A program made the position numbers and the translations under genes. The notes under the pieces were generated by a model, which ran no database searches, was not told the DNA's origin, and saw nothing but the letters and a program-made list of their open reading frames with translations. Positions 15,164-57,192 of a stretch of 64,000 bases of DNA are shown one piece after another (within the stretch, counting starts at the first letter, position 1; each line of letters begins with the position of its first letter). This DNA comes from an uncultured bacterium (GTDB taxonomy: Bacteria > Patescibacteriota > Gracilibacteria > Absconditabacterales > Absconditicoccaceae): positions 10,110 through 74,109 of the forward strand of contig CAMVNA010000004.1 of assembly GCA_947168725.1 (NCBI GenBank), given 5' to 3'.

Positions 15164-15182
15164 TTATATAATATTTTAAGAA

Positions 15183-15383
15183 TTAAATAACATAATTAGT
15201 TATAACAATAACTAGAGCAATCACTAAACATATAGGCCATGCCTCTTTAATAGTCCCTCAAATAGAGAACTTTCACTTACTTTTCTTTGAGAACTTTTTC
15301 TGTAAATATGATACTATTGTATACACGAACAGCACAATCAAATATTCAACAATAAATTCCATAATAAAGTTTACAACACTCAT
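15183..15383 (-). CDS. small membrane protein (hypothetical)
   Basis: A 66-aa ORF with two hydrophobic segments (FIVEYLIVLFVYTIV, WPICLVIALVIVI). Confidence 0.35.
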
Positions 15384-15488
15384 AATAACATATTAATATA
15401 TAAACACATAACTCATTCATAGTATTTTCTCTTGAAATTACAATACTTATAAAAATATATAAATTAATTTATCTATACAACAATCCAC

Positions 15489-15743
15489 ATGAAGAAAAAA
15501 CATAAAATACTCCACGTTAACAACAAAAAAATCAGAATTATTTGAGCAATTATATGTGTAATTGTTCTAGTATGTTTTGTTGCATGAATAGTTATATGAG
15601 TGATTTGATGACATAATTATGATATAAAATTAATGAAACTATGAATACGAACAAGTGTAATAGCCACAATATTTATGTGAATATTACATATCATATATTT
15701 CAGAACTCCAAAAAGACTTAAAAAGCTCTTATACAGTGAATAA
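15489..15743 (+). CDS. small membrane protein (hypothetical)
   Basis: An 84-aa code-25 ORF, verified codon by codon. Two hydrophobic segments are rich in TGA-encoded Gly. Confidence 0.4.
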
Positions 15744-15830
15744 AATCAAATTTATTTTCTCTTGCATTTTGTTCTAATAATTGTAGCATAACATCGTTAT
15801 AATTTTTTATCTTATAACAATTTATTAAAA

Positions 15831-17347: not shown

Positions 17348-17869
17348 ATGCAAGAAGCTCTTAAATGATTATATGAAGTATACAGTAAATTGCCACTATG
17401 GATGTATCTTTTGGTAATAGCCGCAATAGTTATAAAAATAATTGAAAATAGAAGAAAGAAAAAGAAGTTTCAAACTAATAAAAATCATATTATTAATGAT
17501 TATAAAGTTGAAGAACCAAAACGAAGGCAGTTTGAAAAAGAAGTAGCTAATTTATTTGAACAAAATTGATGGGAAGTTGTTTTATGACCTTGATATGATG
17601 ATGGTTGAAAAGATATCGTTGTTAGGAGATGATTAGAAATTTATCTAATTCAATGTAAACATTATTACTGAACTTGGTTTGTATGACCTAATCAAATAAG
17701 AGATTTTCAATGAGCTATCGATCTGTACGAAAAGAAAAACAATATGACTGTAAGGTGAATTTTTATTACATCATGAAAAACTACTTCAAAAGCAAGAGAA
17801 ACCGCTAAAATGTTAGCAATTGAATTATGGGATAAATATAATTGGAGAGAAAAAATTAATAGTCTATAA
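17348..17869 (+). CDS. membrane-anchored Mrr-like restriction endonuclease domain protein
   Basis: An N-terminal TM segment (LPLWMYLLVIAAIVIKII), then FEKEVANLFEQNGWEVVLGPGYDDGGKDIVV...IQCKHY...VGPNQIRDFQGAI...GIFITSGKTTSKA, the Mrr catalytic-core pattern. Confidence 0.65.
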
Positions 17870-22222: not shown

Positions 22223-22960
22223 TTAGCACTTCTTTTTCATTTCTTCAAATAATCCTGGAAAACTATCTATTGTATGTAACGTTAAAGGACTTGCCGATTT
22301 GATGGTAAAGTTTTCTACATTTCATATAAAGCTCAAAGTAGATACTACATCTCACCATATTTTATATGTTGTTATACACTTAGTCCATTCCTTTTTGAAT
22401 AATGTATCCTTCATCATTCAAATAAAACTTTTAGTTGGACTAGATCATGGATTAAATACTATACAACGTTCTGGATTCCTATGTTTTGTCACAATATAAG
22501 ATATAGTTCATCAAAGTGAATGACCACAAACCCATTTCTTAGCATCAGGATATTTCATTTGAACTTCATCAAAAAAATCTAATGACTGTTGCACACGCCC
22601 ATCTATTCAATTCACTCAAAGCACAATTTGTATATCGCTAAATATATCCTTCACATCCTTAAAATCAGTTCATCTATAACATATTAATACAATATTTTCT
22701 ATGCAATGTTTATATGCTGCATGTACTAAAAAATTTGCATCTTTATCGAGAATCCAATCTCAGACTTTATTTTTACGCTGTTCTGGAGAAATATACACTT
22801 CTTTTACAACTTCAACTATTTGATCATCATGCTCCTGTATCGCTGATCTTTTAAATTTTTTCTTTCATAAAATTTTAGCAAATCGTTCTGCAATCCTCTG
22901 CGTTGCAAAACTAGAATCTCAATTAATACTTTTCTTATTTTTAATAAGAGACTCCACCAT
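22223..22960 (-). CDS. lipase class 3-like alpha/beta hydrolase
   Basis: Nucleophile elbow WVCGHSLGGTISY, in which the GG is TGA TGA. The ATG abuts the stop of the upstream ORF (TAAATG). Confidence 0.6.
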
Positions 22961-23755
22961 TTAAGTTAAAGTAAACAAAGATAAAAACTCTGATTGACGA
23001 AGATAATCCAATGTTCTTTGTTGAAGTGCTGCTTTTTCTTGTTCCGAATATAATTTTGAAGATGATGATAGTCTACTTCAATCACGATCATGCACATCCT
23101 GTAATAAATACAGACAATTTCATGAATAACAACATTTTACAATCCAAAAATCTGTACCCAGTTTTTTCAAAATATTTACAATATCATTCGAGAGCATTAA
23201 AGCATCAGAATGATTAGCATAATTAACAGCAAATCATCCATAATCTACTCTCTTAGTCTTCAAATATTTATTATAAAATACCTTAAATATTCTTCGACAC
23301 AAAAAAGAAAATAATATCCCCCCTCCAATTACATTCAACCAAAATAAAACATGCAAAATTTGTCATTTATCATAAAGCCGAAACAACAAACCAAAAACAA
23401 AAAATCGTCAAAAAAATCATCCTACTAGTGGTCGAACAGATGGATTATCCAGTAAATTTTTCTTCAAATCCAACGAAATATATCCAATATTCTGATATTT
23501 AGGGTTTAAGAATCAGATTTTATAAATTATTCATTTTTCATGCACATCATGATCGACAGTTATTCATTCAAATTCTCACCCCTCAATAAAATAACTCTCA
23601 TGAACTTCCTGAAATGTATATCTAAAGTGTATATCTATCGTCATAGGAGAAATAAATCAAATTTTTTGAAGAATCTGATTCTGATGCTGAAAATATAGCT
23701 TTGACGAAGAAAACTTAAGATCTGATTGTATATATTTTTCAGTATTTCAAGACAT
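22961..23755 (-). CDS. hypothetical membrane protein
   Basis: A 264-aa code-25 ORF with central hydrophobic segments (FFVFGLLFRLY, VLFWLNVIGGGILFSFL). It appears to be in an operon with the lipase-like gene. Confidence 0.45.
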
Positions 23756-23909
23756 TATGCCCTACTTTTTAACAATTAAAGTAGATACTACATTATACCT
23801 AAATACTACATAAAAAGCAAAAAATTACTGACTTTTTATGTTTTTACACAATTTAGATATGTTTAAATAAAAATGTCAATCCATTTATAAGATAAAATGT
23901 TCCAAAAAT

Positions 23910-23938
23910 TTGCAAATTTTCACATTTTAGTCTATAAT
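23910..23938 (+). promoter_or_regulatory. strong sigma70-type promoter of the 23.9-kb RNA
   Basis: aaaaatTTGCAAattttcacattttagtcTATAAT, with a 17-nt spacer. It has the same A-tract/TTGxxAAA context as the effector-gene promoters. Confidence 0.6.
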
Positions 23939-23944
23939 ATACAC

Positions 23945-24210
23945 GAGATAAGTTACTTACCGTAAGGTTCTACCCACACAGTATTCCCTTATACTAGGTT
24001 GCTTACCTCAAGGATGTATTCATCCTATTTTCATCTCAGTATACTACCCATTAGACTGGGATGAGTTTAGATCAACCCGAATTGATTTTATTATGGGTCT
24101 TATTATGGGTCAGTATCTTTACCTTGATAGTTTTAAGATAAAGATACCGATCCATATAATGGATCGCCTTTCGGGTTGGTCATGAACGGAAGGATTGCCT
24201 TCCGTTTTTT
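23945..24210 (+). ncRNA. structured RNA of about 265 nt, unknown class
   Basis: Bounded by a consensus promoter and a strong terminator, and GC-richer than its surroundings. Multiple local hairpins are visible (gtatcttta/taaagatac, gatccat/atggatc, aacccgaa/ttcgggtt), plus a tandem 12-mer TTATTATGGGTC x2 at 24088-24111. There is no convincing ORF. I found no tRNA, tmRNA or RNase P signature motifs. Confidence 0.6.
24185..24210 (+). terminator. rho-independent terminator
   Basis: An acggaagg-attg-ccttccgt hairpin followed by T6. Confidence 0.8.
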
Positions 24211-24213
24211 CTT

Positions 24214-24915
24214 TTATGAAAATTTATTCATCCATTTTAAACTGATTGATAATAATTCATCCATTCATCAATCAAGAAAGCGGTGATCAGCTCCCTGAAT
24301 AATATCCAATTCCTTTGGTTTATTAGCATATTCATAGTATTTTTTAGCAACTTCAGCAAGTCAATCTTCGGCTCAAATTATCTTTATCGGAATATTTATT
24401 TCAGATATCTTTTCTAAAAATTTTTCTGATGGAATCTGGAAATCCTTATATAATTTTTCGCTTATATGGTGTTTATATCCGTCTCACCAATTGATATAAT
24501 GTCATCCATTTCAATCCTCATAAATATCATCTAATAATCATTTTCATCATATAGATGAATCTCGCATTAATAATCATGTTACATTAAACAAATCTGCATA
24601 TAAATTAGCAATTCATCCATAACTATGTCATGCCAAAAATATTGATTTATATCACAGTTCTTTTCAGAATTTTAAGACAGAATTTACATCATCTATATTG
24701 TCTTGTAGAGAGACATTATTTAATTTTCTCTCTTCAGGTCAATCTCCATAAAGATTAAATCTTAACGTGGAAAATCAGTTTTTATTAAAAAATTTTTCTC
24801 ATTGTATGAACATTTCTTCATCCTGACTACTTGTTAATCAATGAACGAAAATAATCAATCATTTAGGATTGGATACTTCACTATATGTATATTGATTCGG
24901 AATAGGGAATTTCAT
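24214..24915 (-). CDS. alpha/beta hydrolase (serine esterase/aminopeptidase-like)
   Basis: LIIFVHGLTSS...IFLAGHSYGGIANLY...IIQGADHRF, a Ser-Asp-His triad pattern. Confidence 0.65.
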
Positions 24916-26882: not shown

Positions 26883-27581
26883 TTATCAAATAATTCAATA
26901 TTTAAAACTTATATCATCTCACTCCTTTCTGAAAAATGTTCATTCTTTATCTAAATCAATTTTTGATAATTCATACTCTCCTACTCTAATTCTCCTAAGC
27001 ATTGTAAGAATTCATCCAAGTCAAAACTGTTCTCAAAGTCGATGTCAAATTGATCTAATATAAGTTCATGACCCTACATCTAATCTTAATCTCAACTCAA
27101 GAAAGTTATAATCCAAAACTTCATATCAATACGTTTTCATCAATCTATTCTCAACTATTTGTTCTCATTTTCTAGCCAAATCGTAAAGTTTTTTTCAATC
27201 TTTTTTCTTTGCACTAAACGGAGTGAGAGGTAATTCATATTCTGGGATAATCAAATCTAATTTTGATTTAATTTCTTCTAATGGAATTTCTTTTCATTCC
27301 ACATTTATCTCCTCATAATAATCTCGATATCACATATCCCACGTATCAGAATTTTTGGAAAAATCTATTACGGTTTCATAGCTTTTATCAAGTCATATTA
27401 AACCATTTAATCTTTTTGTATCATTTCAAGTTCATATTAACATTAACCCACTTGCTAATGGATCTAATGTTCAACTATGTCAGATTTTTTTCTCTCATAA
27501 TTCTCTTTTGAGTACACGAATTACATCAAAACTACTTATTCATTTGGGTTTATCAACAATTATCAACATTAAACATCACAT
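26883..27581 (-). CDS. truB: tRNA pseudouridine55 synthase TruB
   Basis: VDKPKGISSFDVIRVLKR..KIGHSGTLDPLASGLMLIGTG..TKRL...DKSYETVIDFSKNSDTWD...GSGTYIRSIGHRLG. The start could be ATG 27581 or ATG 27569. Confidence 0.9.
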
Positions 27582-32418: not shown

Positions 32419-32447
32419 TTGATTTTTTTGATAATTATATGTATAAT
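32419..32447 (+). promoter_or_regulatory. sigma70-type promoter (TTGATT-N17-TATAAT)
   Basis: The track ATG at 32439 lies inside this promoter, so the ATG at 32484 is preferred as the start. Confidence 0.5.
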
Positions 32448-32483
32448 CATTATAGTTTTTTAATTAATATCAAATTTTTATTA

Positions 32484-33875
32484 ATGGATAATATAGAACT
32501 ACTCAAATTAGAAGCAGATGAAATCAAAAAGTCATTAAATGAATTAAAAAATAATATTTCTATTTCTGAAGATGATAAAAGAAATAAAGCAAATCTACTA
32601 AATAGACGAGCGGAAAAAACAAAACAAAAAATTCAAAAAGAAATAGATTCTTTAACTGACAAAACAGATGAAGAATCGAAGAAGAAAAAAGAAGAAGCTG
32701 AAGCTCTTTTAAATAGTTTTAATGATATCACTGCCTTATATAATTCTATCATAAATCCTTCCTCAAACCCATGAACTCATGATTCAAGAACTCAAAGTTC
32801 TGAGCAAACACCAACTGAAAATAAAAACATATTTACAACAGCTACAGATTGGATAAAGACCCAACGAAACAATATATTAGATACAAAAAAACGAAAAGAA
32901 GAGTGACGAGAGAATTGATTTCGTTTAGCATGATTTGCAGCAACATGAATATGAGCACTTGGTCTAGCATATAAATGAGCAAAAAGCTTACGGAATTGGG
33001 CTTTTTGAAGTGATAAGAAAAAAGAAAAAACAGAATCTAAAAAAAAGAAAAAGAAATTTGGTGACAAATGGTATGGTAAGTTACTAAAATGGGCTGGAAT
33101 CACAACAGCAGCATGAGGATGAATTTATTTTTTAGGTAAGCATTTTAATTTATGGTGAAGTACAGACAATAATACAGACAATAATACAGAAAACCAACCA
33201 GCACAACAACAAGATAAAACTACAGAAAACTCTGAAGAAAAATCGAATGAAACAAAAGACTCAAAAGAGAGTTTTCAACCAACATCAGACAAAATATCAA
33301 ATGAAATGTTTGAGCAACTATTAAAAATGGAAGGAAAACACAAACAAGGCAACAACACCCTCGTCGCAAAAACTGGTAAACAATTTTGAGAAAAATTTCC
33401 TACATGACCTTTTGGTATGGTCTATAAACATATAGACAACGAAGGAAACTTACTTAAAAAAGCTATTCCTTTCAAAGAATGAGAAGAGGTAACAGAAGAA
33501 TGGGGAAGAAAAAATGCAAAAGCCTGCTATGACAAAAGAGCCAAAGAAATAAAGGAGGCATTCGATAATAAATGATACAAGTTATCACAAGATCAACTTG
33601 ATGCTCTTACATCTACATGCGGAGGAACATCTAAATCAAGAAAAAATTGTTTAAATTTTGTCCTGGAAAATTGGAACAATCAAAAAAAAGTCGTTGACTA
33701 CATCAGTACTCATTCCACTACTGCAGCATGAAATCATCAAGTTCAGCCTGGACTAGTTTACCGTAGAAAATTCGAAGCTGACTGGTTCGTATGAAACAAA
33801 ATGACTTTTGCAGAACATAGATCAATGCAAAAAAAATGAAAAAACACAAATCCTAATTACAGTCATTTAGCATAA
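32484..33875 (+). CDS. modular envelope protein 1: coiled-coil N-module + two Gly/Ala-rich TM segments + GH24 (phage/T4-type) lysozyme-like C-domain
   Basis: 463 aa. N-module MDNIELLKLEADEIKKSLNELK...ALYNSIINP. TM segments LAGFAATGIGALGLAY and WAGITTAAGGGIYFLG. The C-domain reads LLKMEGKHKQ...PFGMVYKH...QPGLVYRRKFEADWF, with the GLxxRRxxE..F ending typical of GH24 lysozymes. Confidence 0.7.
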
Positions 33876-34802: not shown

Positions 34803-36359
34803 ATGAACGATAATATTGACCTCTTAAAAACAGAGGTAGATAAAATCAAAAAATCATTAAATGAACTAAAAGATAATATCACTTTTTCTGAAACAGAAAA
34901 AAAAGACCAAGCTGAAATTCTAAACAAACAAGCAGAAGTAACAAAACAAAAAATTCAGAAAGAAATAGATTTTTTAGCGAACAAAACGGATGAAGAATCA
35001 AAAAGAAAAAAGGAAGAAGCTGAAGCTCTTTTAATTAGTTGTAATGATATCACCGCCCTATATAATTCTATCATAAATCCTTCTACAAGCTCAACAACTC
35101 AAAGTCCCAGTCAATCACCCACTGAGAGCACAAACATATTTACAAAAGCAAAAGATTGGATAAAAAACCAACGAAACAGCATCCTAGACAGGGGAAAGTG
35201 GAAAACAGAATGATGAAAAAATTTATTACGTGCAGCATGAGGTGCAACTTCACTTGTTCTGTTATATAAATGAGCTAAGAAATTATGGAATTGGGCATTT
35301 TGAGACAATGAGAAAGAAGATAACAACGAAAATTACGAAAGTAAAGAAAACACGAGTGAAAACGATGAAGAAAAAACAGAAGTAAGAACAAATGAAGAAA
35401 CAAATGAAGAAGAAAATAACAATAATGACAATTATGCGGAAACAACTGAAGGCAATACTAAAGAAGAAAAGAAAGAAAGCATCTGGAGTAAACTGTGGTG
35501 AAAAGCTTTAGCTTGGTTATGAATTGCACCTGCTGCTTGAACCGCTGCTGCCGCCTGAGCTGCTACCGCCTGAGCTACTGATAAAGAATCAGATTCATGA
35601 ACAAGCGAAGATGTGGGAAAAGATGAAAGTACATCTAATGAACCTGATAAAGAAAATAGTTCTGATCCTTCTACTAATACAAATGAACCTGAAAATAGTC
35701 CCGATAAAAAAGAATCCAACGAGAACACCACAAAAAAAGATACAAAAAATTCAACTAATTCTAATGAATCTAAAGAAGTAGATAAAGGAAAAAATACTTA
35801 TACTAATCCCATAAGTGGATTAACTTATAAACGTATTGATCAAGTTACAGACCCAGCAGGAAAATTGAGATACTCATGAAAAAGAAGTGGTAAAACTGTA
35901 GCCAATATTTGATGTTTACTAGCTTCTGGATGTACTGTAACCTCTGCTCTCTGCCCAGAAGTAACCTTAACAGATTGTTTTAATAATGTTAGACATTGGA
36001 CCGCCGATAAAGCTGTTGCAAAAATGTCGAACAATAAATGGAAATCGGAAGCTCTTTTATCATGAGAACATGGAAACAGAACAAAGACACAAGAACAAAA
36101 AGCAAAAGAAAAAATAATAGAAAACTTAAAAAAATGATATCCTGCTGTCATCGGTGCCAGACATTCAGGTATTGATGGAATAAATAACAGTATAGTATCA
36201 CAACATTACCGTGCTATTTTAGGTATAAGAACTGAAAATGGGAAGAATGAATTCTTCGTTTGAAATACTTATAAAAATGGATCATGAGGATGGATGGATG
36301 AAGATAAAATATTTAAAAACATGATACACGCTTCTATATTTACTCCAAATCAAGCATAA
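34803..36359 (+). CDS. modular envelope protein 2: same N-module + Gly/Ala-rich TM segments + acidic/Ser-Asn linker + C39-like (papain-fold) Cys peptidase C-domain
   Basis: 518 aa. The N-module is about 75-90 percent identical at DNA level to gene 32484. TM segments GGATSLVLLY and ALAWLGIAPAAGTAAAAGAATAGA. The C-domain has SGCTVTSALC (candidate Cys nucleophile) and SQHYRAILGIR (candidate His). Confidence 0.7.
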
Positions 36360-36394: not shown

Positions 36395-37786
36395 ATGACA
36401 AAAATCGAACAATTGGAAAGTAAGACATCTCAAATCAAAGATGATTTGAACAAATTAAAAAACGATGTTAATCTTTCAGAAGAACAAAAGAGAGAAAAGG
36501 CTCAAGAAATCTTTACTGGTGCAAAAGATATTGAACTGAAAATTAACGAACTGGAATCTCAAACATGAGAAGGATCACAAAGAGACACAGACAGAGCAAA
36601 ATTACTACTAAAAAATTTTGAAGAAGTAAAGACATTATATAACGATATAATGTGAGAAGAAACTAGGAATCAAAATCTAAATCAAAACAATACAAATCAA
36701 ATAGAGGATAAAGATCAAACAACGAATACTCCAACTTCTGAAGTTCAGGATGAAGACAAATCAATTTTATGAACAATTGGAAACTGGTTCTGAAGTGCAA
36801 AAGAATGGATATGAAACCAATGGTCAGATATATGGAATACAGATAAACGAAAAGAAGATTGACTGAAGAATTGATTACGTACAGCATGATTTTTATGAGC
36901 AGCTGGTTTTATATATGAATGAGCGAAAAGTCTGTGGAATTGGGCTTTTTGAGATGACGAGGAAGAACATGAAGAAAAAACAGAATCTAAAAAAAAGAAA
37001 TCTGGTGATAAACGGTATAGTAAATTGTTAAAATGGGCTGGAATCACAACAGCAGCATGAGGATGAATTTATTTTCTAGGTAAACATTTTAACTTATGGT
37101 GAAATGACACATCTATCGAATCACAAAAACCAGAATCTTCGACAGAAACCCAGATTGAACCTACTTCAGAGAATAAAAATAATAACCAGGAAGAAAAGCC
37201 ACAAACTGATAAAACATCAGAAAAACCAACCACATGAGAGCAAAAGACTGCAGAACAAAAGAATAATAATCAAAAAGAAAACTTACAAGTCAGTAATTCA
37301 TGATATACAACTTGAGAAGACTTAACTAAAAAACAACAAAACATTATGGGACAAAAGCTTAACAAAATAAATTCTCCAATTACAGTAAAAATGGTACAGG
37401 ATTCTTGTAGTACTCATAATGTACCAGTTGAATACTTATTAGGTTTTATGCAAAATGATAGCAGTTTATGAACAAAATGAAAATGAGCAAAAACCCATAA
37501 TCCATGAAATGTATGAAACACCGATAGTTGAGGTACCAAAGATTTTTGAACACGAGAAAAATGAGTGGATGCTTGTGCAGAAAATCTAGAGAAACGTATC
37601 GTCGCCTACTCCAAAGCAAAAAAAGAACATAATTGAAAGTGATTTAATGACTTCCCTACTCCTAAAGAATTAGCCACATGAAAAAGCGAGGGATGAACCA
37701 AATTTTTTGGAGTTTACATGACAAGTAAAACTTGACCAACTAATGTTACAAAAATAATAAATTCTCGAGCTGACTCTTTATCATAA
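36395..37786 (+). CDS. modular envelope protein 3: divergent coiled-coil N-module + the same TM2 block as protein 1 + lysozyme-superfamily-like C-domain
   Basis: 463 aa. LKWAGITTAAGGGIYFLGKHFNLWG is encoded by a block about 94 percent identical to 33081-33159. The C-domain reads VPVEYLLGFMQNDSSLG...HNPGNVGNTD...ACAENLEKRI (SLT/glucosaminidase-like motif order). It is a paralogue of 42072..42890. Confidence 0.65.
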
Positions 37787-37850
37787 ATTGAATCATTATT
37801 TATTTTATTCAATAATGATTTCTATTATCAAAATAAAAAAACCTAAAAAT

Positions 37851-37879
37851 TTGACAAAATTTATTCAAAATGAATATAA
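37851..37879 (+). promoter_or_regulatory. consensus promoter AAAAATTTGACAAA-N17-TATAAT
   Basis: TTGACA at 37851-37856 and TATAAT at 37874-37879. Confidence 0.6.
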
Positions 37880-37917
37880 TAAAACTATAATATTTTATCA
37901 TATTAACCACATTAACA

Positions 37918-38601
37918 TATGATTAAGACAAACACCTCTAATACTATAGAAAATCCAGAAACTCCTTCTTCAAACTTTTCTCATGAATTGAGGACTTTAT
38001 GAGACGAAATAAGTAAAATCAATAATTTAGATAAATGGTATATCCAAAACAATAGAAAAGAAAAATAAACCAGAAAAGACTCACACAAATCCCAAAAGTG
38101 ATCTAACTTATAATCAATATGATCAAGATGACCCTCGTTGGAAAGACATCAATCTTATAGAGAGGTACTACAATAGGAAAGATTGGATGAACTGTAACAG
38201 CAATTGCTTGCATCGCTTCACCAGCTAACCCTTTAATAACTCCTAAGGATACTGCGGAATATCGTTGACGATTCCCTGATCGTGCCATCCCCAAAATAAC
38301 AAATGATAAAATAAAATCAGATCGCTTAACAATAGATGATAACACAAACAATAGAATAAAAAAATATTTAGAGAAATGATACCCTGCAATTATAATGGTA
38401 AAATGTAGAATGGGCTGAGGACAAAACAAACTAATTAGATGACAACAATATTTAGCAATTGTCGATTATAGAAACAACAATGGGAAAGAAGAAGTTTTTA
38501 TAGCGAACACAGATAATGGTAAATGAGGAGGATGGATGCCTCTAGATAAAGCTTTTGTTAGTATAAAGGAAGCTACATTGTTTACTCCCACAGGAAAGTA
38601 A
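37918..38601 (+). pseudogene. decayed paralogue of the C39-like modular protein (multiple frameshifts or stops, catalytic Cys codon changed)
   Basis: Homology to the family is spread over three frames. 37949-38068 reads HELRTLGDEISKINNLDKW. 38067-38228 reads THTNPKSDLTYNQYDQDDPRWKD. 38161-38601 reads RGTTIGKIGGTVTAIAC...KGYPAIIMV...QQYLAIVDYRNNNGKEEVFIANTDNGKGGGWMPLDKAF. The only ATG ORF (37918) stops at 38014. The TM and linker modules are missing. Confidence 0.6.
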
Positions 38602-38604
38602 TAT

Positions 38605-42071: not shown

Positions 42072-42890
42072 ATGATAGAAGTCGAGCAAAACAATAATCA
42101 AGAAAAAGAAAGTTATGAAAACACTCTCAAAAAAGTTGAGACAGAGATTGCTGAATTAAATGATGACAATGTAGATAATGACAAGATTGAATTAGACTGA
42201 CTACTCACACAGTGATTTGCGGAATATCTCTGAGCAGAAAAAGCAAAAAAAATCCTTGATTCCATTAGTAATATGGAAGACAAACCTGAATGATTACAAC
42301 AACTTGAAGATTTCCTTAAATCTGCTTCGTTATCTTTGAATCAATGAATAGGTGAAAATGAGAGACAACAAGAAAACCTTATTAAGTGACCTGATAAGTA
42401 TATATATTGATATAATTTAACAGAAAATCATCTAAATAAGATATCAAATACGTTTAAAAAGCTAAACTCTCCATTGGAACCACAAATGATAAAAGATTCT
42501 TGTTTAAATTTTCCTTATCTACCTGCCGAATATCTTTTGTGATTTATGCAAAACGATAGTAGATTATGAACTGCCTGAAAAAGAGCAATAAATAATCATA
42601 ATCCATGAAATGTATGAAATACTGATGACTGAAAAAATAGGTATTTTGAAACACGGGCAGATTGAGTTAATGCTTGCGCAGAAAATTTAAAAAAACGTAT
42701 TGATGCTTATTCTAAAGTAAAAAAAGAACATAATTGAAAATGATTCAACGATTTTCCAACTCCAGAAGAATTAGCAACTTGAAAAGCTAAAGGTTGAACT
42801 AGATTTTTTGGAGTTTATATGACAAATCCTAGTTGACCATCGACTGTTGCGTGAATAGTAAATCATCGAAACAAAAAACTCAGAACATAA
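42072..42890 (+). CDS. short paralogue carrying the lysozyme-superfamily-like C-domain of protein 3
   Basis: 272 aa. LPAEYLLGFMQNDSRLG...HNPGNVGNTDDG...ACAENLKKRIDAYSKVKKEHNGKGFNDFPTPEELATGK, about 78 percent DNA identity to 37420-37780. The N-terminal GLLTQGFAEYLG...LQQLEDFLKS motif is shared with gene 44716. Confidence 0.65.
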
Positions 42891-56045: not shown

Positions 56046-57192
56046 TTTAATTCGTTATCAAAGGTCTAACTACATATCTATAAACCTCATTTCATTTATC
56101 AGTAATTATCATAGGCTTTTGATCAGTAACAAGATTGAATTGGATTTCATCAGATTCCATCATTTTGATGAAATCAGTAATATATCTTCAATTGACTGCA
56201 AATACAATTGGCTCTCATGAAATAATTGCGTTGATCTTGGTCTTTCACGCTCATTTATCAGTTTTTCACGATGAAATAATTATTGAACTGTCTCACTGAG
56301 TTTCGATTTGAATGAAGTTGTTCATGTCTCTAGTAAGAATTCAAATTTTTCTGATAGCTTTTTCACATAATGTTTTATCTACCAAAATTGTGTGATTAAA
56401 TTGAGTCGGCATAATTTCTTCTCTTTCGTAATCAGGGAAATTTCATTGAATCAATAATGAAGTTGCAGAAATCTTAATATCTCAGATTGAAAATTCAAAT
56501 CAGATTAAATTATCCGAATATTTCATTTGCATATCAGGAGACTCACCCTTCACTGCATATTCAGCGATAGATGTGACATCATTTATTGCTGATTTTGGAA
56601 TAAGAAGAGAAAAATCTGATTCAATATCTGCAGGAATTTTAAATTCAGCGATTCTGAAAGAATCTGTTCCAACAAAAACTAATTTTTTAGTATCTCATTC
56701 AGATTTAGTTTTAATTAAAACTCAAGTAAGGACTGGTGAAAAATTCTTTTCTGTGATTGTGTATTCTACCATATTTACTCAGTTTATGAATGTCTGAGTT
56801 TCTAAGTTTATATTTGTAGTATTCATTAGTTCTGGCAACGCTACATATTCACTTGCGGAAATTCAGTTAATTGTGAAATCATCATCTGCAGAAGTGATTT
56901 GCATTACATTATTTTGCATATTTACAGAAATTTCTATTGCTTTTTCTTCGATTGTTTTTAACAAATCTGAAAACATTTTAGCATTTACAGTGATTGCTCA
57001 TTCTAATTTTATTTCACATGGAATTTCGATATCTACGTATTTTTCCATATCAGTAGCTCTAATATTTAGAGTGTCAATACTCGCCTTCATGTAAATATTC
57101 TGCAAAATTGGCAATGTAGAATTTTTGGATACAAACCTAGATGCGATATCGCATACTTCAACAAGTTTTTCACGATCAATAACGATTTTCAT
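56046..57192 (-). CDS. dnaN: DNA polymerase III beta sliding clamp DnaN, with an apparent 1-nt frameshift near 56280
   Basis: The N-terminal 312 codons (MKIVIDREKL...PVLTGVLIK...FVGTDSFRIAEF...LIQGNFPDYEREEIMP...IETQGDSSI) run in one frame to TAA at 56256-56254. The conserved C-terminus (IISSGKTDKG...EPIVFAVNGRYITDFI...YRYVVRPLITN) is in another frame, open from 56279 to TAA at 56048-56046. The total length of 1147 nt is not a multiple of 3. Confidence 0.85.

Follow-up and report, generated by a model that had tools for sequence, protein, structure and literature searches.

Gram-positive bacteria carry small regulatory RNAs (sRNAs) such as RsaE/RoxS and 6C, which are about 80-115 nt long and whose C-rich motif (UCCC or CCCC) is aimed at Shine-Dalgarno sequences. 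Bacteria of the Candidate Phyla Radiation (CPR, Patescibacteria) have tiny genomes and very few described non-coding RNAs. Here we describe a putative structured RNA encoded at 23945-24213 on the plus strand of a 64,000-nt stretch of DNA, hereafter the window, from an uncultured Absconditicoccaceae bacterium of this group (assembly GCA_947168725.1, contig CAMVNA010000004.1, positions 10,110 to 74,109). An earlier note on this DNA, made from its letters alone, had proposed a stand-alone structured RNA that it could assign to no class.

Among the larger described RNAs, 6S RNAs are known to refold into a hairpin that joins a displaced helix strand to the central bubble on its 3' side (PMC8876501), and divergent RNase P RNAs of CPR genomes fall below Rfam thresholds, yet RF00010 detects them at lowered scores (PMC8172020). 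A search of the literature for the sequence and for non-coding RNAs of the phylum turned up nothing that matches the RNA studied here. The comparison of homologues argues that a genuine non-coding RNA of about 250-270 nt, strongly folded and with transcription of its own, is encoded in interval 23945-24213, and the RNA is a new family within a known general kind, the stand-alone bacterial structured non-coding RNA.

Results

Homologues and transcription signals

Homologues were collected by three routes: synteny with TruD, DNA patterns, and the adjacent 264-aa protein, whose contigs were added to escape pattern bias. TruD synteny gave homologues in two metagenome-assembled genomes (MAGs), one 84% identical over 316 nt and the other 71% identical over 303 nt. 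A third GTDB genome, found with an 18-mer of the conserved core, has the RNA and TruD on different contigs, and a two-block DNA pattern returned 53 metagenome contigs. With nhmmer, the RNA was present in every 264-aa-protein locus that reached far enough (E = 1e-69 to 1e-82). The distinct full-length homologues (n=44) all lie on Absconditabacterales-type contigs that read UGA as glycine (code 25), most of them metagenomic and, as we read the sample names, of rumen or gut origin. Conservation and pairing statistics refer to an alignment of 40 of these sequences and the switch analysis to all 44.

A second GTDB scan with a different pattern found the same three species again, each pattern adding one spurious match (L006 and L070). 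Viral contigs, phage records and plasmids gave no match to the RNA, so the element is not mobile, and no paralogue of it was found within the window. The RNA is a single-copy core gene of one Absconditabacterales lineage, and the family is real but narrow. The source assemblies leave it unannotated and call short hypothetical ORFs (open reading frames) beside the locus: in L068 a public call at 1140-1301 overlaps the RNA (nhmmer match 1313-1060), and in L065 one at 2441-2869 lies between the RNA and the 264-aa gene without overlapping the nhmmer match (2358-2104).

The transcription unit is delimited by the following features.

23910-23938, plus strand: sigma-70-type promoter, with -35 TTGCAA at 23910-23915, a 17-nt spacer and -10 TATAAT at 23933-23938; an A tract lies upstream
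23945-24213, plus strand: predicted RNA, about 269 nt here and 250-267 nt in relatives
24184-24216, plus strand: intrinsic terminator, GAACGGAAGG-AUUG-CCUUCCGUUU followed by a U tract; G+C-rich 10-bp stem at 24184-24207

A promoter-like match by itself is worthless in this AT-rich DNA, since 19 such sites were found in 3 kb against 20.2 expected. This promoter is credible because AATTTGCA and TATAAT are invariant and their spacing is fixed throughout the 40-sequence alignment, while the spacer and the upstream DNA vary. The first transcribed nucleotides and the terminator are conserved as well, and the DNA downstream is not. The predicted 5' end (about G23945) was taken from the promoter and the first base of helix P1, and the predicted 3' end from the terminator U tract. 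The terminator stem directly precedes TTTTTCTTTT. It is kept in all homologues, pairs in 100% of alignment cells, and shows compensatory changes at 256-275 (A-U to G-C) and 259-272 (G-C to A-U).

G+C content is 0.345-0.38 over 23900-24299 against 0.22-0.29 on both flanks. The plus strand folds to -101.2 kcal/mol, compared with -58.9 +/- 4.6 for 200 dinucleotide shuffles, none of which was as good (z = -9.25); the minus strand has z = -6.31. Many G-U pairs are conserved, for example 140-238 in 21 sequences and 260-271 in 19, and these would be A-C mismatches on the other strand, so the plus strand is the functional one.

Coding capacity has to be judged by the code of the host. ORFs of at least 100 aa amount to 15.6 kb of the window under table 11 versus 91 kb with TGA as sense, and TGA stands for glycines that are invariant in the TruB GHxGTLDP motif and in GxSxG nucleophile elbows (e.g., 26883-27581, 24214-24915 and 22223-22960). 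The code is therefore 25 (UGA = Gly), as in Absconditabacteria and Gracilibacteria. Public protein clusters of the clade carry W at UGA sites, a code-4 translation, and are hence mistranslated. With UGA read as glycine, a stop-free frame (23952-24302) crosses the RNA interval, but no ORF is kept in position, strand or frame among the homologues, whose longest ORFs have neither strand, frame nor sequence in common, and there are many single-base indels. The RNA gene is non-coding. The consensus promoter, strong terminator, GC-richer interval, lack of a credible ORF and well-formed local hairpins that the earlier note had listed all hold up here, the last with five helices conserved among homologues.

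Secondary structure and covariation

Secondary structure was derived with RNAalifold and refined by hand. The model consists of three hairpins (H1, H2 and H3), a 3' domain closed by P4 that holds P4a together with either a P4a extension or P4b, and the terminator. Its 5' half comprises the following parts.

23945-24009, plus strand: H1, the 5' domain, a 65-nt irregular hairpin; P1 pairs GAGAUAAGU with GCUUACCUC, and the inner stem pairs GUAAGG with CCUUAU
24011-24026, plus strand: H2, a small 6-bp hairpin, AGGAUG-UAUU-CAUCCU
24031-24064, plus strand: H3, a hairpin with a 10-bp stem and a 14-nt loop; UACUACCCA(U/A)UAG at 24042-24054 is invariant and holds a second CUACCCA copy

Over the whole model, 96.7% of alignment cells hold standard pairs, against 31-48% when the partners are slid by 1-3 columns. 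Pairs changed on both sides number 20-22, compared with 6.8-7.8 in column shuffles, and 0 of 500 shuffles reached the observed percentage paired, number of double changes or covariation score. Covariation lies mostly in H3, P4a, P4b and the terminator. An all-against-all search for column covariation indicative of pseudoknots gave nothing usable, being dominated by phylogenetic and G-U noise.

Among the individual helices, H3 has both-side changes in five of its ten stem pairs; pair 97-116, for example, is A-U in 17 sequences, G-C in 16 and G-U in 7. The outer pair of H2 occurs as A-U, G-U, G-C and U-A, and its five inner pairs are near-invariant (one G-C to G-U change). P4 pairs in 99.6% of cells, with one-sided A/G and C/U changes on its 5' strand facing an invariant G/U-rich 3' strand. 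In P4a both sides have changed in 7 of 15 pairs, and neither the length nor the sequence of its loop is conserved. H1 changes little: G3-C to C3-G exchanges and several one-sided changes (U-G, C-G, U-A) occur in P1, and L069 has one G-C to G-U change. These few changes mostly agree with the model.

The 5' half and its loops

The H1 apical loop has 19 nt, of which the 5' half, GGUUCUACCCACACA (23966-23980), is invariant, and the H1 and H3 loops share the same nonamer, U(U/A)CUACCCA. In the eight sequences retrieved through protein synteny alone, 82 of the 121 columns of the 5' half are identical, including the invariant runs UACCGUAAGGUUCUACCCACACA (23 nt), GGAUGUAUUCAUC and UACUACCCA. In the same genomes the 264-aa protein is 46-65% identical in the homologues of largest divergence and TruD 61-83%. 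A core of 120 nt thus stays frozen behind a strong promoter while neighbouring proteins drift to 46-65% identity, which suggests that the RNA does something cells need.

Both loop motifs have the form (G/A)-U-N-C-U-A-C-C-C, which can be written as a transfer RNA (tRNA) T loop, G53-U54-U55-C56-N57-A58-N59-N60-C61. The genes truD and truB, which encode tRNA pseudouridine synthases, lie nearby. We treat this T-loop likeness as a lead only.

A 3' domain with two predicted alternative helices

The 3' domain is made up of the parts below.

24070-24181, plus strand: the whole 3' domain, closed by the 12-bp helix P4, GAUCAACCCGAA (24070-24081) with UUCGGGUUGGUC (24170-24181); inverted repeat I6
24088-24099 and 24100-24111, plus strand: tandem 12-mer, two copies of TTATTATGGGTC, doubling the linker and the upstream switch segment
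24105-24111, plus strand: switch segment a, upstream copy, AUGGGUC; extends P4a by pairing to the middle arm (conformation A)
24112-24147, plus strand: P4a hairpin, 15 bp, with variable sequence and apical loop
24148-24155, plus strand: switch segment a', the middle arm, CGAUCCAU, common to both alternative helices
24159-24166, plus strand: switch segment a, downstream copy, AUGGAUCG; with the middle arm it forms hairpin P4b, closed by an AUA loop (conformation B, a three-way junction)

In all 44 sequences the middle arm is complementary to both of its partners, which are nearly identical to each other, and seven sequence versions of this arrangement occur. As P4b these read GAUCCAU/AUGGAUC, AAUCCAU/AUGGAUU, GAGCUU/AAGCUC, GGGCUU/AAGCUC, GAUGGC/GCCAUC, GAUUC/GAAUC and GGAUCUCU/AGAGAUCC. 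The upstream segment changes along with them, as in the upstream/middle/downstream sets GGAUU/AAUCC/GGAUU, GUUC/GAGC/GCUC, GCUAUC/GAUGGC/GCCAUC, GGAAUC/GAUUC/GAAUC and GGAUCU/GGAUCUCU/AGAGAUCC. Among the pairs of conformation A, 169-215 occurs as A-U, G-U, U-G or C-G and 171-213 as C-G or U-A. Three-way covariation of this kind is characteristic of selection acting on both of two helices that exclude each other. Constrained folds place the two conformations close together (E(B) - E(A) = 0.3 +/- 1.6 kcal/mol), and the model predicts a bistable 3' domain. Neither P4 nor the terminator stem takes part in the switch; since it does not reach the terminator, the switch is not an attenuator.

The tandem 12-mer, which had been pointed out beforehand, is indeed present at 24088-24111, though of the 40 aligned sequences only the window and its closest relative, L031, have it. 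This lineage-specific duplication is no feature of the family.

Locus and neighbouring genes

Two minus-strand genes, 458 bp apart, enclose the RNA interval.

22961-23755, minus strand: gene for the 264-aa membrane protein
24214-24915, minus strand: alpha/beta-hydrolase gene

The genomic context is ordinary. On one side lie PheT, two secreted or membrane proteins, a class-3-lipase-like protein and the 264-aa protein; downstream the order is hydrolase, TruD, another hydrolase, TruB and DUF502, which puts truD and truB 0.7-3.6 kb from the RNA. Only some of the genomes have the hydrolase gene that separates the RNA from TruD.

The RNA always adjoins the 264-aa gene. At more than 50 loci its transcription points away from that gene and runs convergently towards the 3' end of the gene downstream. 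In L028, L041 and L054 the cassette of about 330 bp from promoter to terminator is inverted in place and the neighbours have not moved; at these three loci the 264-aa gene starts about 430 nt downstream on the same strand as the RNA. Since its orientation relative to the neighbours can flip, the RNA is an autonomous unit without cis action on them. The gene thus has what a generic trans-acting sRNA gene has: its own promoter, an intrinsic terminator, no coding function and independence of neighbour orientation.

The 264-aa protein is restricted to the clade (107 clusters, all at least 46% identical and without names) and has no Pfam domain. Its AlphaFold model (pLDDT 72.6, pTM 0.69), built from database sequences with W at UGA sites, has a beta-sheet domain at the N terminus and an alpha/beta domain at the C terminus, as well as two long helices. 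The one notable match of this model, to the mycobacterial lipid-transport factor TtfA (TtfA/NTF2-like), is weak (E = 0.013). The linkage of RNA and protein may be simple inherited synteny. Together with the class-3-lipase-like gene (22223-22960, minus strand), the 264-aa gene perhaps forms a lineage-specific lipid or envelope module. At 23782-23811 a direct repeat, two copies of (T)A(G/A)ATACTACAT, flanks a minus-strand TATAAT, which probably serves the 264-aa gene as promoter. The repeat, which is not conserved in L001, has ATACTAC in common with the loop motif of the RNA.

Translation signals and other features of the window

Shine-Dalgarno motifs were sought in the 25 nt upstream of the 54 genes called in the window; GGAG was found before none of them (0/54) and GGG before 3. 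Upstream regions are A/T-rich, and initiation appears to be Shine-Dalgarno-independent. Outside the RNA gene, GGGTAG occurs twice in the window against about 8 expected, both times deep in coding regions.

Most genes lie on the minus strand up to about 28.9 kb and on the plus strand beyond it, and the GC skew changes sign at about 40-44 kb, some 16-20 kb from the RNA. A DnaN-like gene is located at 56047-57192 (minus strand), and the window may include an origin or terminus of replication. Two intervals, 15164-15830 (667 bp) and 37787-38604 (818 bp), hold no called gene of at least 90 aa; an Rfam scan of both for canonical RNAs gave no match even at E <= 1. Three tandem paralogues on the plus strand (32439-33875, 34803-36359 and 36395-37786) have in common a hydrophobic segment and, at the N terminus, about 100 aa of coiled-coil-like sequence. 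The C-terminal halves are not alike, and some resemble the product of 42072-42890, as seen in the translations alone. The product of the gene at 17348-17869 (plus strand) is small and combines a membrane helix at its N terminus with a catalytic domain of the Mrr restriction-endonuclease type (PF04471, E = 7e-20).

Searches for known RNA classes

At gathering thresholds, Rfam 15 gave 0 matches in the whole window. At E <= 10, positions 23700-24400 and the most divergent homologue (L004) returned only chance matches to miRNA-type hairpins. ARAGORN found no tRNA and no transfer-messenger RNA (tmRNA) in the window, permuted forms included. These searches and inspection of the family consensus bear out the earlier note, which had remarked that the interval lacks the motifs of tRNA, tmRNA, RNase P and signal recognition particle (SRP) RNA and had thought of a CPR genome. 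UGA does code for glycine here, and one related MAG is titled Candidatus Absconditabacterales. Of the tests that it had named beforehand, the Rfam search brought no confident match, so the RNA is not an ordinary member of a known family, and relatives show both conservation and covariation; what stands is a conserved cassette with no Rfam family.

Discussion

On balance, we lean towards reading the locus as the gene for an undescribed, clade-specific, trans-acting structured RNA, with the frozen 5' half as its working part and a bistable 3' module. What the RNA does we infer from its conservation and predicted fold. The near-invariant 5' half would be the working part, and the nonamer U(U/A)CUACCCA, held in two hairpin loops, would offer a bivalent surface to a partner. 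This partner would rather be a protein or a structured RNA such as tRNA than an mRNA, because not only the loops but also the stems and junctions are frozen, because the genome is without Shine-Dalgarno sites for C-rich loops to mask, and because GGGTAG sites in the window are neither enriched nor near start codons. In the 3' domain, the middle arm would pair with its upstream copy to give a long rod or with its downstream copy to give a three-way junction, and such a bistable module could gate or time activity or guide co-transcriptional folding.

Several points weigh against this reading. Expression of the RNA and the position of both its ends are predictions from sequence. The near-invariant H1/5'-domain fold is for the most part likewise predicted, and in two sequences the inner H1 stem has an A-C mismatch. 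Evidence for the switch comes from some 5-6 independent lineages and from nearest-neighbour (model) energies, and the unconstrained RNAfold optimum is often a third, rod-like arrangement that is 3-6 kcal/mol lower. The family is narrow, with only 3 GTDB species representatives, as is commoner among regulatory sRNAs than among ribonucleoprotein RNAs. The 264-aa protein, as a candidate RNA-binding partner, was rejected, having neither an RNA-binding fold nor a Pfam domain.

A bolder version of the trans-acting reading, which we offer tentatively and regard as rather doubtful, takes the RNA for a housekeeping-like ribonucleoprotein or tRNA-binding RNA of the UGA-to-glycine Absconditabacterales. 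Its two T-loop-like modules would dock the tRNA elbow or a dimeric tRNA or translation factor, and the 3' domain would act as a two-state switch. If this were true, the RNA would have a core cellular role with no counterpart in cultivated bacteria, and with tRNA or a translation factor as its partner it could bear on the life of the lineage with a recoded stop codon.

A serious rival, which we nonetheless consider unlikely, is a base-pairing regulatory sRNA like RsaE/RoxS or 6C, in which the CUACCCA loops would be seeds for UGGGUAG-like mRNA sites and the remainder scaffold. An own promoter with a Rho-independent terminator, a narrow phylogenetic range and the exposure of the same motif in two loops all speak for it, and a motif carried in loops fits the usual anatomy of Gram-positive-type sRNAs such as RsaE/RoxS. 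However, the genome offers no G-rich Shine-Dalgarno sites to such seeds, and GGGTAG falls short of expectation and lies inside coding regions. Moreover, about 120 nt are frozen, stems included, which goes beyond what a seed and a scaffold need, and an RNA of more than 250 nt with five helices is large for the class.

We think it more improbable still that this is a very divergent housekeeping RNA (RNase P, SRP, 6S or tmRNA) beyond Rfam recognition. The strong, constitutive-looking promoter and the extremely conserved core would suit such an RNA, and CPR RNase P RNAs below the Rfam thresholds are known (PMC8172020). Those divergent RNAs can still be detected at lowered scores, whereas the window copy and L004 gave no sub-threshold match at E <= 10 to RF00010, RF00011 or any other housekeeping family, and the family is confined to few genera. 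The 5' end pairs locally in P1, with nucleotides 57-65 and with covariation, and not with the 3' end. This local pairing excludes the architectures of RNase P (P1), tmRNA (acceptor stem) and 6S RNA (closing stem).

Each class also has points of its own against it. For RNase P, the family consensus has no GGAAAGUC-type or ACAGAA...GGCUUA-type conserved block (CR-I/CR-V), and the P1 of 5' and 3' ends is absent. For tmRNA, ARAGORN and Rfam were negative, and there is no tRNA-like end, tag ORF or acceptor stem. For SRP RNA, no Rfam match was found, and P4a, the only long hairpin, has a freely covarying stem and a tip of inconstant sequence and length, unlike the conserved domain IV with its GNRA-type loop and internal loops.

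Of the four, 6S RNA is the most plausible, given the rod-like 3' domain with a conserved alternative hairpin and the superficial resemblance of 6S refolding (PMC8876501) to the a/a'/a arrangement. The RNA nevertheless has no 5'-3' closing stem and no RF00013 match. The geometry of refolding is mirrored as well: the helix that opens lies on the terminal-loop side here and on the closing-stem side in 6S RNA, that is, on the opposite side of the unpaired linkers.

Cis action, as a leader or riboswitch or as a type III antitoxin-like repeat RNA serving the 264-aa gene or the hydrolase, seems very improbable to us. The RNA does adjoin the 264-aa gene at every locus and precedes it on the same strand in L028, L041 and L054, it has a bistable element and a terminator, and the window copy carries the tandem 12-mer. 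At the more than 50 other loci, however, the 264-aa gene lies upstream of the RNA promoter and the RNA and the downstream gene are convergent, and the switch involves neither the terminator stem nor P4. A riboswitch, T-box or other cis leader was rejected in view of the convergent downstream gene in the window and at most loci and the lack of an Rfam match. A ToxI-like type III antitoxin was rejected because the 2 x 12-nt duplication is found in only 2 of 40 sequences and no neighbour is toxin-like.

That the interval holds no RNA gene at all, being instead a small UGA-sense protein gene or a DNA element (protein-binding sites or origin-associated repeats), is an idea to which we give hardly any credence: it can point to the stop-free frame, to TACCCACA, which resembles a DnaA box, and to a GC skew sign change within the window, but the ORFs of the homologues share neither strand, frame nor sequence and single-base indels abound, the helix substitutions are compensatory with G-U pairs specific to one strand, the skew change is distant, and the second motif copy has four mismatches to the DnaA box.

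The trans-acting structured RNA that we favour has structural evidence above the average, and its two-state element is interesting, although its range is narrow. It is a compact natural two-state RNA element supported by three-way covariation. The alignment is ready to be turned into a covariance model for the annotation of MAGs, in which gene callers place spurious ORFs over the locus.

Comparison with known systems

Like RsaE/RoxS and 6C, the RNA comes from a stand-alone gene with its own promoter and terminator, carries an identical C-rich motif in more than one loop and is very highly conserved within its range. It differs from them in its length of 250-270 nt, its five helices, the sequence U(U/A)CUACCCA, a host genome without Shine-Dalgarno sites and the lack of an Rfam match.

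With 6S RNA (RF00013) it shares a promoter-driven and likely abundant transcript, a long irregular rod and a conserved alternative hairpin in which one helix strand pairs with a neighbouring unpaired segment (PMC8876501), whereas it has no large central bubble and has 125 nt of extra, invariant 5' structure.

The loop motif resembles the tRNA T arm and the double T-loop binders of the tRNA elbow (T-box stem I, the RNase P S-domain and the L1 stalk of 23S rRNA), a likeness that serves as a lead only. In contrast to these, each loop here has one closing pair and no further T stem, and no tRNA, T-box or RNase P covariance model matched.

In general character the RNA stands beside the orphan structured RNAs of medium or large size that comparative genomics has brought to light in bacteria (the raiA motif RNA, OLE, ROOL and GOLLD), with an intricate fold supported by covariation, an independent gene and near-invariant loop and junction nucleotides. 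It has no similarity to these in sequence or structure (all are in Rfam 15 and none matched), belongs to another host phylum, and occupies a much narrower range.

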